From a virus (Duplodnaviria > Heunggongvirae > Uroviricota > Caudoviricetes): a stretch of DNA of 8,517 nt. A model generated the notes under the pieces. That model was not told where the DNA came from. It searched no databases and worked only from the letters and a program-made list of their open reading frames with translations. Within the stretch, counting starts at the first letter, position 1. Every line of letters begins with the position of its first letter. Where the stretch lies: the IMG/VR virus record IMGVR_UViG_2619619131_000020, positions 1 through 8,517 of that record. One strand, 5' to 3'. A program made the position numbers and the translations under genes. Positions 1 to 7,509 of the stretch are shown in pieces.

Positions 1-1513
<1,513 letters not shown>

Positions 1514-1546
1514 GTTCAGCGCGGAGTTTAAGCAGGTGGTGAACTG

Positions 1547-2245
1547 ATGCAGGATATTCACGAAGAAAGTCTGAGCGAGTCGGTTAAATCAGAGCAGTCA
1601 CCGCGGGTGGTACTCTGGGAAATTGACCTGACGGTGCAGGGTGGTGAGCGGTATTTTTTCTGTAATGAGCTGAATGAAAAAGGGGAGCCGGTCACCTGGC
1701 AGGGGCGGAAGTACCAGGCGTACCCGATTGATGGCAGCGGCTTTGAGATGAGCGGGAAGGGCAGCAGTGCCAGACCGTCGCTGACGGTGTCCAATCTGTT
1801 CGGTCTGGTCACCGGGATGGCGGAAGACCTGCAGAGTCTGGTGGGGGCCACGGTGGTCCGCCGCCGGGTGTATGCCCGTTTTCTGGATGCGGTGAATTTC
1901 GTTGCGGGCAATCCGGCGGCGGACCCGGAGCAGGAGTTGAGTGACCGCTGGGTGGTGGAGCAGATGTCGCAGCTGACAGCCATGACGGCCTCGTTTGTGC
2001 TGGCCACACCGACCGAGACGGACGGGGCGCTGTTTCCCGGTCGTATCATGCTGGCGAACACCTGTATGTGGACCTACCGCTCTGATGAGTGTGGTTACAC
2101 GGGCGGGGCTGTGGCGGATGAGTTCGATAAACCCACCACGGATATCCGTAAGGACAGATGCAGCAAGTGCATGCGCGGGTGTGAACTGCGCAGGAATGTC
2201 GGCAATTTTGGCGGTTTCCTTTCCATTAATAAACTTTCGCAGTAA
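1547..2245 (+). CDS. L: Minor tail protein L (lambda gpL-like), 232 aa, apparently intact
   Basis: The 232-aa translation (MQDIHEESLSESVKSEQSPRVVLWEIDLT...GGERYFFCNE...NVGNFGGFLSINKLSQ) matches lambda gpL in length and in conserved blocks as I remember them, including the C-terminal Cys-rich region (CGYTGG...CSKCMRGC). The start overlaps the M stop. Confidence 0.9.
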   Translation: MQDIHEESLSESVKSEQSPRVVLWEIDLTVQGGERYFFCNELNEKGEPVTWQGRKYQAYPIDGSGFEMSGKGSSARPSLTVSNLFGLVTGMAEDLQSLVGATVVRRRVYARFLDAVNFVAGNPAADPEQELSDRWVVEQMSQLTAMTASFVLATPTETDGALFPGRIMLANTCMWTYRSDECGYTGGAVADEFDKPTTDIRKDRCSKCMRGCELRRNVGNFGGFLSINKLSQ

Positions 2246-2255
2246 ATCCCGGTTT

Positions 2256-2999
2256 ATGACACAGACTGAATCAGCGATTCTGGCGCATGCCCGGCGGTGT
2301 GCGCCTGCGGAGTCGTGCGGCTTCGTGATAAGCACGCCGGAGGGGGAGTGGTATATCCCTTGTGTGAATATTTCTGCAGAGCCGGAGGCGTATTTTCGTA
2401 TCGCACCGGAAGACTGGCTGCGGGCAGAGATGCAGGGGGAGATTGTGGCACTGGTCCACAGTCATCCCGGTGGGCTGCCCTGGCTGAGCGAGGCTGACCG
2501 GCGGCTGCAGATAAAAAGCGCACTGCCCTGGTGGCTGGTCTGCCGGGGTGACATTCACAAATTCCGCTGTGTGCCACATCTGACAGGACGGCGCTTTGAG
2601 CACGGGGTGACGGACTGTTACACGCTGTTTCGGGATGCTTATCATCTGGCGGGGACTGAAATGCCGGATTTTCATCGCGAGGATGACTGGTGGCGCAACG
2701 GTCAGAACCTTTACCTGGACAATATGGCGGTCACAGGCTTTTACCGGGTGCCCCTGTCCTCTGCACAGGCGGGCGATATTCTGCTGTGCTGCTTTGGTGC
2801 TTCGGTACCGAACCATGCCGCCATTTACTGCGGCAACGGTGAGCTGCTTCACCATCTGCCTGAACAACTGAGTAAACGGGAGAGGTATTCCGAAAAATGG
2901 CAACGACGAACGCATTCTGTCTGGCGTCACCGCCACTGGCACGCATCTGCCTTCACGGGGATTTACAACGATTTGGCCGCCGCCTCAGCCTGTATGTGA
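2256..2999 (+). CDS. K: Tail tip assembly protein K (lambda gpK-like) with JAB/MPN and NlpC/P60 domain motifs
   Basis: The translation starts MTQTESAILAHARRCAPAESCGFV. A JAMM-type motif HSHPGGLPWLSEAD (H-x-H-x7-S-x2-D) is visible directly, as are NlpC/P60-type catalytic residues (Cys in GVTDCYTLF, His in VPNHAAIY). The start was chosen at the first ATG after the L stop, in frame with ORF 1995-2999. Confidence 0.85.
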   Translation: MTQTESAILAHARRCAPAESCGFVISTPEGEWYIPCVNISAEPEAYFRIAPEDWLRAEMQGEIVALVHSHPGGLPWLSEADRRLQIKSALPWWLVCRGDIHKFRCVPHLTGRRFEHGVTDCYTLFRDAYHLAGTEMPDFHREDDWWRNGQNLYLDNMAVTGFYRVPLSSAQAGDILLCCFGASVPNHAAIYCGNGELLHHLPEQLSKRERYSEKWQRRTHSVWRHRHWHASAFTGIYNDLAAASACM

Positions 3000-3532
3000 A
3001 CACGGCAGCGGAAGCCATTCGCGCCCTGTCGATGCAGATGCCGGGCTTTCGCCGTCAGATGAACGAAGGCTGGTACCAGATACGTATTGCCGGTGATGAC
3101 ACGGCACCGGAGGCGGTGTATGCCCGTCTTACGTCCTTCAGTTATGCCAATGCTGAGGATGAGCAAAAAACGCGCTACAGAGATACCCGCTGGCATGAAG
3201 ATTCCGTGCGTAACCGCTGGTTCAGCGTGATGGCGGGGCCGTCTGTACGCGTGAATGAATGGTTCAGCGCGTATGCGATGGCGGGTGTGGCTTACAGCCG
3301 TGTGTCGACTTTCTCCGGGGATTATCTCCGCGTAACTGACAACAAGGGGAAAACGCACGACGTGCTGACCGGAAGTGATGACGGTTGCCACAGCAACACG
3401 TCTCTGGCGTGGGGGGCTGGCGTGCAGTTTAACCCGACCGAATCCGTGGCCATTGATATTGCTTATGAAGGCTCCGGCAGTGGTGACTGGCGCACTGACG
3501 GTTTCATCGTGGGTATCGGTTATAAATTCTGA
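2897..3532 (+). pseudogene. In-frame chimera: N-terminal ~70 codons of tail assembly protein I fused to the C-terminal ~130 codons of outer-membrane protein Lom; J and the Lom signal peptide are missing
   Basis: N-terminus MATTNAFCLASPPLARICLHGDLQRFGRRL...WYQIRIAGDD resembles the lambda gpI N-terminus. From ~nt 3130 the translation SFSYANAEDEQKTRYRDTRWHEDSVRNRWFSVMAGPSVRVNEWFSAYAMAGVAYSRV...DGFIVGIGYKF matches the Lom/Ail-family beta-barrel C-terminus ending in aromatic F. No J-like ORF (expected >1000 codons) lies between. Confidence 0.7.
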
Positions 3533-3558
3533 TTAGCCAGGTAACACAGTGTTATGAC

Positions 3559-3586
3559 AGCCCGCCGGTTCAGGCGGGCTTTTTTG
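3559..3586 (+). terminator. Rho-independent terminator downstream of the I-lom chimera
   Basis: An 8-bp perfect stem AGCCCGCC (3559-3566) / GGCGGGCT (3573-3580) with a 6-nt loop GGTTCA is followed by a T-run at 3580-3585. Confidence 0.6.
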
Positions 3587-3596
3587 TGGGGTGAAT

Positions 3597-4811
3597 ATGG
3601 CAGTAAAGATTTCAGGTGTGCTGAAGGATGGTACAGGAAAACCGGTACCGGACTGCACCATAGAGCTGAAAGCCACGCGAACGAGTGAGACGGTGATAGT
3701 CACCACGGTGGCGCAGGGGCAGCCGGGGGAAACCGGCAGTTACAGTTTTGATGTGGAGCCGGGGTGGTACCGGGTGACGCTGAACACGGAAGGGTACGCC
3801 CCGTCGTATGTGGGTGACATTCTGGTGAAGGCGGATTCTGAGCCGGGAACGCTGAATAAATTTCTGATGGAACAGGATGAGGTGCAGTATTACCCGAAAG
3901 CGCTTGCAGAGCTGGAAGCGGTGGCAGCGGAAATCCTGAAGCGTGCTGAAGCGTCGGCGGCGAGTGCAGAGGAAGCGAAGGAACGGGCAGAGAATGCCCG
4001 GGGACCGGCGGGCGAGAAGGGGGACACAGGTCCACAGGGTGCCACAGGGGCACAGGGACCAGCCGGGGCAACGGGGGCGGTCGGACCAAAAGGTGAGCCG
4101 GGGCCAAAGGGAGAACGGGGAGAAACAGGTCCACAGGGACCGAAGGGCGATAAAGGTGACCCGGGCGGACCGCCGGGGCCGAAAGGGGATACGGGAGACA
4201 CAGGCCCGGCAGGACCACAGGGGCCGAAGGGAGATACGGGAGACACAGGCCCGGCAGGACCACAGGGGCCGAAGGGAGATACGGGAGACACAGGCCCGGC
4301 AGGTCCGCAGGGACCGAAGGGAGATACGGGAGACACAGGCCCGGCAGGACCACAGGGACCGAAGGGAGATACGGGAGACACAGGCCCGGCAGGACCACAG
4401 GGACCTAAAGGGGATGCGGGAGCTGCAGGCCCGGCAGGGCCACAGGGACCGAAGGGAGATACGGGAGACACAGGCCCGGCAGGACCACAGGGACCGAAGG
4501 GAGATACGGGAGACACAGGTCCGGCAGGACCTCAGGGACCGTCAGGAAGTCCTGACAGCGGACTGTTTGGTGTCGGTTCTTTTGTCCTTGCGGCATATTA
4601 TGCGACGAGTTATTCGGGGGATATGGCACCGGGCTCAGCCATTGCCGGCTCATCACTGTCTGCATGTTGCCTTTCGAATGGTACTCCCCTGGTTGCTTCC
4701 GGTAATGTGGGGGAGACCCGTTTACCGGGCACGTGGCGTGCATGTGGTCCGATGCTATGGACATCATCTCCGGGTATCAGACAGGCAGGATTATTTCAGC
4801 GCATATCATAG
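3597..4811 (+). CDS. stf: Side tail fibre protein (lambda Stf-like N-terminus, collagen-like Gly-X-Y shaft, distinct C-terminal domain)
   Basis: N-terminus [26 protein letters not shown] resembles the lambda Stf N-terminus. Codons ~136-320 are uninterrupted G-X-Y triplets ([13 protein letters not shown]...[15 protein letters not shown] repeated). The C-terminal ~90 aa are non-collagenous ([19 protein letters not shown]...GTWRACGPM...LFQRIS). Start taken at ATG 3597 rather than the in-frame GTG 3591; stop TAG 4809-4811. Confidence 0.8.
4179..4538 (+). repeat. Eight tandem copies of a 45-bp unit (CCGAAGGGAGATACGGGAGACACAGGCCCGGCAGGACCACAGGGR) encoding [15 protein letters not shown] inside stf
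   Basis: Direct reading: units begin at 4179, 4224, 4269, 4314, 4359, 4404, 4449 and 4494. Five are near-identical; the units at 4269, 4404 and 4494 carry a few substitutions. The period is a multiple of 3, so the reading frame is preserved. Confidence 0.85.
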
Positions 4812-4819
4812 AGGAGGTC

Positions 4820-5428
4820 ATGGTGGATAAGGGAAAAGAGATTCTTGCAGTACGAAATGCAGCCAGCAACGAATATGGCGGGATAAACTGTGAGGTGCAG
4901 TTTGAAGACGCGGTGAATGAAAAAGGGGAACAGGTATGGCTGCCGTATACTGCAACGGAAACGGATAATACAGAACACGGAAAAGCATTGTGGTCTGGGC
5001 TGACAGCAGGAACGTACGGAAGTGTGAGTGCCTTTGTCGCCACGGAAGCAGTACTGGAAGCGGCAAAAGCGGCGAAAAGGGAAGAGATTAATATCTGGCG
5101 TGATGTGCAGGAGAATATGGAATACATGATGGAATTCAACGGAAGGAACTGGGATTACGGCAAGAAGACGTTGTCCAGGATAAGCATGACACGCCTGATG
5201 GCAGAGAATAACCGTCTTCCGGAAGGTTTTGCTTGGACCGACGGGGATAATAATGTGGTGCCGGTGACGGCGGCAGACATCATAGCCCTGTCGGATGCGA
5301 CAGAGCAGGCGATGTTTGCGAAGGGGGTGGAGATTAATACACGGCAGTTGCAGATGAAAGCAGAGGTTGAGGCGCTGACAGAGCTGAAGGCGATCCGCAG
5401 TTACGTTGTTGGATGGCCTGCTGGCTGA
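4820..5428 (+). CDS. Putative tail fibre assembly / chaperone protein (DUF4376-like C-terminus), translationally coupled to stf
   Basis: A strong Shine-Dalgarno GAGGAGG at 4811-4817 lies directly after the stf stop, with ATG at 4820 (GTG 4823 is an alternative). The C-terminal block FAWTDGDNNVVPVTAADIIALSDATEQAMFAKGVEINTRQLQMKAEVEALTELKAIRSY fits the pattern I associate with DUF4376 fibre-associated proteins. It is not similar to lambda Tfa. Confidence 0.55.
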   Translation: MVDKGKEILAVRNAASNEYGGINCEVQFEDAVNEKGEQVWLPYTATETDNTEHGKALWSGLTAGTYGSVSAFVATEAVLEAAKAAKREEINIWRDVQENMEYMMEFNGRNWDYGKKTLSRISMTRLMAENNRLPEGFAWTDGDNNVVPVTAADIIALSDATEQAMFAKGVEINTRQLQMKAEVEALTELKAIRSYVVGWPAG

Positions 5429-5457
5429 ATAAAAAAACGGGACCACGACCAGTCCCG
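5429..5457 (-). terminator. Rho-independent terminator for minus-strand transcription (downstream of the ykgJ-like gene and int)
   Basis: Stem CGGGAC (5438-5443) / GTCCCG (5452-5457) with an 8-nt loop. On the minus strand the hairpin is followed by a T7 run (complement of A-run 5431-5437). On the plus strand no T-run follows the hairpin. Confidence 0.55.
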
Positions 5458-5569
5458 GAACCATGAGTTTTAGGGTATTAGTTTGTTATCATAGTTAGCG
5501 TGCTAAGTATGCCATGTCAGGTTGATTAGTGAAGTGATGTTGTTCGCATTTTTGCACGGCGGAGAATAT

Positions 5570-5895
5570 TCAGATTTTTGGAAATCCATATTTTTCCCGT
5601 GCGCGATTACATGCTTCATTTACGATGCTATTTTCGCCGGACATTGCGAATTCCCTGCATGTGGACGGTTTTTGTAAACAGAGCAATATGCGTTTTCTCC
5701 GGGGGGGGCCGGCAAGAGCGCCACATCGGGGATTTTTCTGATTGGTGCCGCGCATACAGCGATGAAAAGGAGATATTTGCTCAGTGAGACTGACCGAAAC
5801 CTTTCCGCCAGCATCGTCAGCTTCTGCCCAGTAAAAAGAGACGCGGAAAATGCACAACAGGCACCACACGTCATGCATGGATTCAGATTGCTCAT
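5570..5895 (-). pseudogene. YkgJ-family (CxxCxxCC, putative zinc/iron-chelating domain) gene interrupted by three frame changes
   Basis: Two overlapping minus-strand ORFs (5620-5895 and 5570-5902) each carry pieces of one family pattern. Frame a gives the N-terminal [10 protein letters not shown] and later CSVYKNRP; frame b gives [15 protein letters not shown]...[27 protein letters not shown] and the C-terminal [27 protein letters not shown]. Switch points coincide with homopolymer runs at plus-strand 5847-5850, 5701-5708 and 5669-5673. Family assignment is from memory of the motif pattern. Confidence 0.5.
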
Positions 5896-7434: not shown

Positions 7435-7509
7435 TGGTGTCCCCTGCAGGAATCGAACCTGCAATTAGCCCTTAGGAGGGGCTCGTTATATCCATTTAAC
7501 TAAGAGGAC
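7435..7509 (-). tRNA. argW: tRNA-Arg (anticodon CCU), argW
   Basis: The reverse complement of 7435-7509 is GTCCTCTTAGTTAAATGGATATAACGAGCCCCTCCTAAGGGCTAATTGCAGGTTCGATTCCTGCAGGGGACACCA (75 nt). It has a 7-bp acceptor stem (GTCCTCT/AGGGGAC), anticodon loop CTCCTAA with anticodon CCT, T-loop GGTTCGATTCC and an encoded CCA end. Confidence 0.95.

Follow-up and report, generated by a model that had tools for sequence, protein, structure and literature searches.

Organisation of the Locus

The window, by which we mean the whole 8,517-nucleotide stretch of DNA analysed here, is identical throughout (8517/8517) to nt 3-8519 of JNRL01000022.1, a contig of the E. coli draft assembly GCA_000704665.1. It covers the late-gene end of a lambda-like prophage and carries, in this order, the 3' end of terminase A, W, a portal-FII fusion, a fragment of M, L, K, a chimeric reading frame composed of parts of I and lom, the side tail fibre gene stf, the tail fibre assembly gene tfa and a gene resembling ykgJ. 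They are followed by intS, a tRNA-Arg(CCT) gene (7435-7509) and yfdC. The genes surrounding the chimera, L, K, stf and tfa, are all intact open reading frames (ORFs). Tail gene K (2256-2999, plus strand, 247 aa) is defined by its Pfam domains, Prok-JAB and NLPC_P60, and by the gene calls in sister contigs, and it shares its last 103 nt with the beginning of the chimeric ORF, in the same way that K and I overlap in lambda. The chimera itself (2897-3532, plus strand) extends from an ATG at 2897 to a stop codon at 3530-3532 and comprises 211 codons. Directly 3' of the lom stop codon, and upstream of stf, a pattern scan detected a terminator-like GC-rich hairpin with a T-run (3559-3590, plus strand), a consensus match only, in which seven of the pairs in the 8-bp stem are GC. 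A promoter scan of positions 1500-3700 yielded a single weak site, against 0.9 expected from shuffled sequence, and none above chance.

The late genes follow the lambda-like order A-W-B'/'FII'/'M-L-K-I'/'lom-stf-tfa, which is interrupted by three deletion junctions in total. An initial annotation of this DNA had counted the I'-'lom join as the second in-frame junction in the window, and this holds, given that the B'-'FII junction is also in frame by Pfam. The latter is located at 1117-1122 (plus strand), where the homologies overlap by 6 nt, and it was defined with Pfam and by blastn against phage 2G7b and L002, a sister contig that still carries the genes lost at this point. Relative to 2G7b, about 4.2 kb are lost there, namely the rest of B, C, D, E, FI and the start of FII, and the in-frame join generates a 340-aa ORF (491-1513) with matches to Phage_portal_2 at aa 32-209 and to Phage_attach at aa 211-294. 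After about nt 1371 this ORF enters M sequence out of frame and it stops at 1513. The corresponding FII'-'M junction (1371-1386, plus strand) was located by blastn against 2G7b and the intact prophage L019, which is described below. The join is out of frame, with FII in frame 2 and M, whose remnant extends to 1547, in frame 0. Relative to 2G7b it has cost the prophage about 5.3 kb, encompassing Z, U, V, G, T, H and the start of M, and the 57-mer at 1352-1408 that represents the junction was found in all sister loci. The occurrence of two in-frame junctions among three is unremarkable because the probability of at least two of three arising by chance is about 0.26 (7/27).

Compared with phage 2G7b, the window prophage lacks C, D, E, FI, Z, U, V, G, T, H and J. 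A lambda-like gene order without essential morphogenesis genes characterises it, at the level of sequence, as a defective lambdoid prophage and, judging from the missing genes, it would be unable to form infective particles.

The stf gene (3597-4811) encodes a long Gly-X-Y collagen-like region in which four stretches match Pfam Collagen. Its collagen-like repeat array, at 4160-4541, consists of 8.5 copies of a 45-bp unit, and the number of repeats varies among the sister contigs, yielding products of 404 to 479 aa, a variation to which collapse of short reads may contribute. A change of similarity partner was also observed within stf. Positions 1-4270 of the window are 100% identical to sister remnants adjoining potB, positions 4540-5895 are only 96.6% identical to them and, beyond 5895, the window enters intS/tRNA-Arg/yfdC and not potB. 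This switch reflects either a true recombination between a prophage at potB and one at argW or a wrong joining of short reads in the draft assembly.

Composition of the Chimeric ORF

The ORF at 2897-3532 is a chimera. Residues 1-78 constitute the N-terminus of the tail tip protein I (gpI), encoded by codons 1-78 of I (2897-3130, plus strand), and residues 79-211 correspond to residues 67-199 of Lom, encoded together with the stop codon at 3131-3532 (plus strand). The initial annotation had described a 211-codon ORF that starts as I and ends as Lom, and both Pfam and BLASTP agree with that description at these coordinates.

For the I half, BLASTP aligned residues 1-78 with residues 1-78 of the VT1-Sakai gpI (75/78 identical, 96%) and of the lambda gpI (46/78 identical, 59%). 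The Pfam family Lambda_tail_I (PF06805) matches aa 15-69 with an E-value of 1.3e-10 and a score of 42 bits against a cut-off of 23.8, and the match covers profile positions 3-55 of 83. Among PDB entries, the I half matches the lambda 'tail tip assembly protein I' (8iyk, chain I) over residues 1-78, where the alignment ends, and the nucleotide sequence of the segment is matched by that of L019. It had been proposed that the nature of the N-terminus, gpI or a Lom signal or pro-region, would discriminate between readings of this ORF, and the BLASTP and PDB alignments of residues 1-78 to gpI decide for the former; a Lom pro-region is ruled out by the gpI matches to VT1-Sakai and lambda.

For the Lom half, residues 78-211 align with residues 66-199 of the VT1-Sakai Lom (130/134 identical, 97%) and with residues 73-206 of the lambda Lom (64/134 identical) in BLASTP. 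The Ail_Lom family (PF06316) matches aa 77-211 with an E-value of 2.9e-81, over profile positions 65-199 of 199. In the PDB, the half aligns with residues 75-206 of the lambda Lom in 9wso (E 9.7e-37) and with OmpX (E 2.8e-13), and it also matches L019. Lambda Lom is present in 9wso, a solved structure, as chain C. No J sequence was found between the I' and 'lom parts of the ORF. Some annotations use an alternative in-frame GTG start at 2996 and these yield a 178-aa form of the protein (P0003).

The Breakpoint and the Deleted Segment

Three-way nucleotide displays, in which the window was set against the intact I and lom genes of L001, L003 and L019, place the deletion junction at a 2-bp microhomology, TT, at 3129-3130 (plus strand), with the breakpoint at 3130/3131. 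I-type sequence continues up to nt 3130 (...GCCCGTCTT) and lom-type sequence runs from nt 3129 onwards (TTACGTCCTTC...), with I codon 78 (Leu) directly preceding lom codon 67 (Thr) in frame. The breakpoint thus located by nucleotide alignment falls within the range 3105-3140 that had been predicted for it. In the K-I region the window seemed to differ from L001/L019 by a 1-nt indel, but this proved to be an artefact of BLAST end extension across the junction (CTT-ACG versus CTTCACG), and the I side is ungapped.

The intact reference L019 is a prophage integrated at potB in E. coli S1-CAM-01-A (NZ_CP145714.1). It is identical to the window at 234/234 nt on the I side (2897-3130) and at 401/402 nt (99.8%) on the lom side (3131-3532). 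Relative to L019, 4,529 bp are absent from the window at the I'-'lom junction, comprising all of J (3,474 bp) with the spacers that separate it from I and from lom, the remainder of I (codons 79-226) and the first 66 codons of lom. The gene order I-J-lom occurs in lambda, VT1-Sakai, phage 2G7b and the E. coli prophage L001. The earlier proposal that J and the Lom signal peptide had been deleted is borne out by comparison with these intact relatives, and the rest of I is missing as well.

Sister Copies and Stepwise Decay

A 40-nt string representing the junction is present in 10/10 other E. coli contigs examined, which include the complete 4.84-Mb chromosome CP170296.1. Since the join is identical in all of these, it is not an assembly error, and the junction in the complete chromosome argues against the possibility, raised in the initial annotation, that a corrected assembly would place J between I' and 'lom. 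NCBI lists the exact 211-aa protein as EFC4077933.1, under the name 'hypothetical protein', and the 178-aa form occurs on 11 contigs.

The fusion is inherited across isolates. All copies share the I'-'lom and FII'-'M junctions and they differ in other deletions. The B'-'FII deletion occurs in the contig of the window, L011, and in L008, L010, L012, L015 and L016, three of which (L010, L015 and L016) carry an additional Nu1'-'A fusion. Four sister contigs (L002, L007, L009 and L013) have a 510-bp W'-'B deletion and have retained C, D, E and FI. The sister copies therefore show a stepwise decay, in which the common junctions came first and different deletions later; the I'-'lom deletion, being common to all copies, is placed early and those not shared by all are lineage-specific. 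The chimeric ORF is 100% identical in all copies and the flanking DNA is equally identical, with zero substitutions over about 4.2 kb outside the stf repeat array in most copies and mismatches confined to the array. The exact I'-'lom junction was found in 0/5,426 complete RefSeq E. coli genomes, and hence the lineage that bears it is rare.

Properties of the Predicted Fusion Product

Lambda gpI has the same start, overlapping K, and its residues 1-78 align end to end with the chimera. It differs in that the chimera keeps only 78 of about 225 residues and that the Pfam domain is cut at position 55 of 83. A complete gpI N-terminal domain, of 83 profile positions, is not present, with Lom sequence following after residue 78. 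The 'I-domain' of the initial annotation is accordingly correct as to its gpI origin but not as to its completeness, because the I part ends inside its N-terminal domain. Residues 135-223 of lambda gpI form a tripod plug in the lumen of the tail tip and bind gpJ (PMC10721106), and this hydrophobic, plug-forming C-terminal region is absent from the chimera.

With the barrels of the Ail/Lom/OmpX group (PF06316; 9wso, 1qj8 and 3qra), the chimera shares Lom residues 67-199, including the C-terminal ...GIGYKF, and it differs from them in having lost the signal peptide, the first two strands and half of the third, so that the barrel could not close and a route for export would be lacking. When aligned to OmpX, the Lom part begins at ...LGLI|TSFSYA..., a break that, given the topology of OmpX in 1QJ8, corresponds to the middle of OmpX strand 3. 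On this alignment and topology the Lom part would retain half of strand 3 and all of strands 4-8, or about five and a half strands out of eight. There is no N-terminal Sec signal peptide; the deletion has removed lom codons 1-66 and with them the leader MRKVCAAILSAAICLSVSGAPAWA. By a heuristic measure, the maximum mean Kyte-Doolittle value over 12 residues is 1.33 for the N-terminus of the chimera versus 2.68 for the leader of intact Lom. Export is not expected because the N-terminus is an ordinary gpI N-terminus of low hydropathy. The homology of the N-terminus and its low hydrophobicity both point to a product that would be cytoplasmic and unanchored.

Intact Lom has been implicated in adhesion and, when expressed, it provides strong protection against lambda-vir (bioRxiv 10.1101/2025.02.28.640651). 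Neither adhesion nor blocking of lambda-vir would be expected of the chimera, since both need an assembled outer-membrane barrel. An AlphaFold2 model of the chimera, built on a shallow alignment of 20 sequences, gave a mean pLDDT of 37.6 and a pTM of 0.29, although a model of such low confidence should not be taken as proof that the protein cannot fold. Because gpI is truncated, the barrel is partial and the signal peptide is lacking, the product would be unable to assemble a tail tip or to arrive in the outer membrane, and most likely it is the inert product of a pseudogene.

Other Lom Fusions in E. coli

A homology search, biased towards Lom-containing fusions, revealed many other single E. 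coli ORFs (dozens) in which the C-terminal part of Lom is fused to other proteins. The partners include the portal protein (P0059, 353 aa and present on 40 contigs, P0066 and P0114), terminase A (P0077), protease C (P0073), U (P0055), Z (P0092), a tail tube protein (P0091), L (P0103), fragments of J (P0036 and P0054) and lysozyme (P0068), and there is also an I'-J'-Lom triple fusion (P0109). Another I-Lom fusion (P0019, 315 aa), named 'tail component of prophage CP-933K', has kept almost all of I and essentially only J was removed, unlike the chimera in the window. Otherwise these X'-'Lom fusions represent the same kind of event, an in-frame deletion extending from an upstream late gene into lom.

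The lom breakpoints of the other fusions differ, ranging from about codon 36 to codon 100. A deletion hotspot in lom was considered and rejected, as the independent fusions break at many codons within this range. The complete RefSeq genomes carry only different, independent deletions in I, J and lom, at 88-92% identity. L005 has an out-of-frame I'-'lom junction, represented by two pseudogenes according to PGAP, and in L006 an I'-'J remnant adjoins an intact lom. The many independent X'-'Lom fusions, which differ in partner and breakpoint, show that such fusions are a routine outcome of prophage decay and commonplace in E. coli.

Origin of the Fusion

We consider it very probable that the chimeric ORF is a fusion pseudogene, created by a deletion in an E. 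coli prophage that is lambda-like and defective. A single event of illegitimate recombination or replication slippage at the TT microhomology would have removed about 4.5 kb, extending from I codon 79 to the end of I and through the spacers, all of J and lom codons 1-66, and I codon 78 would have come into frame with lom codon 67 by chance. If translated, the 211-aa product would be initiated at the normal I start overlapping K. The event would have occurred early in the decay of the lineage and further, lineage-specific deletions would have followed.

Other origins can be envisaged for the join. JNRL01000022.1 is a 2014-era draft contig, in which the sequence may be wrongly joined within the stf repeat array, and a similar short-read mis-join of I' and 'lom would imply that J is actually present. 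However, the same 40-nt junction is found in the 10 other contigs, from different assemblies and with the complete chromosome among them, and an assembler would have had no reason to join the sequences here because there is no repeat at the junction, just 2 bp of common sequence; the chance of such an artefact is vanishingly small. The K-I' and 'lom-stf sides could also have originated from two co-resident lambdoid prophages by illegitimate recombination. Recombination among E. coli lambdoid prophages is frequent (PMC2669165), the window switches similarity partner inside stf and in L001, which of the initial references matched the I side best, lom is divergent over nt 3131-3169. Nevertheless, the intact prophage L019, located at the same potB site as the sister remnants, matches the two flanks at 100% and 99.8%, and since L019 alone accounts for both of them one parent suffices. 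An inter-prophage origin is thus very unlikely.

A further possibility is that the I-Lom fusion was exapted, being expressed and kept for a function, for example as a cytoplasmic decoy or regulator or, by sustaining translation along the operon, as a means for the downstream stf and tfa to escape from polarity. Consistent with this, the fusion is in frame, its native I start is coupled to an intact K, the neighbouring L, K, stf and tfa are intact ORFs, the ORF is unchanged in at least 11 isolates and, of the window's three junctions, two preserve the frame. The last of these points loses its force in view of the chance probability estimated above, and the persistence of the fusion carries no signal of selection because the isolates are close to clonal across this stretch of the prophage, most copies being free of substitutions as described. 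Moreover, both domains are cut inside folded units, a terminator-like hairpin lies between the fusion and stf and AlphaFold2 gives no confident fold. The independent fusions, with their many lom codons and unrelated partners, are what would be expected from random deletion combined with in-frame ascertainment. Exaptation of the window fusion therefore seems highly improbable, and we attach equally little credence to the more general proposal that I-Lom and many X'-'Lom fusions have been retained because reading through the junction, or the C-terminal Lom fragment as such, brings a benefit, for example in the expression of the downstream stf or cargo genes or in a new cytoplasmic role. If the general proposal were true, the retained X'-'Lom remnants would constitute a domesticated module and not debris.

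Annotation and Comparison with Other Cryptic Prophages

Whereas the 211-aa form of the ORF is a 'hypothetical protein' in the public databases, its 178-aa form appears there either as 'Ail/Lom family outer membrane beta-barrel protein' or as 'bacteriophage lambda tail assembly I family protein'. Most other X'-'Lom fusions have likewise been annotated automatically, some with the Ail/Lom family name and some with that of the fusion partner. The ORF deserves to be flagged as a fusion pseudogene, otherwise it will be miscounted as a Lom adhesin, an exclusion factor or a tail gene. Its relevance beyond annotation hygiene is slight, in that it is a real but ordinary gene remnant, and the sister contigs illustrate, in a tidy and datable way, how a prophage decays step by step. 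Deletion fusions close to lom are common among E. coli and the I'-'lom chimera is a fresh instance of a well-known kind of prophage remnant.

Deletions, frameshifts and IS insertions are the norm for the lambdoid prophages of E. coli, and the same defective state has been described for most prophages of the Sakai strain (PMC2669165). The window prophage resembles cryptic lambdoid prophages, such as those of the O157 Sakai Sp pool, in its colinear gene order, its multiple internal deletions and its loss of morphogenesis genes. It differs from the cryptic lambdoid prophage pool in general in that it represents one lineage, carried by a handful of E. coli isolates.
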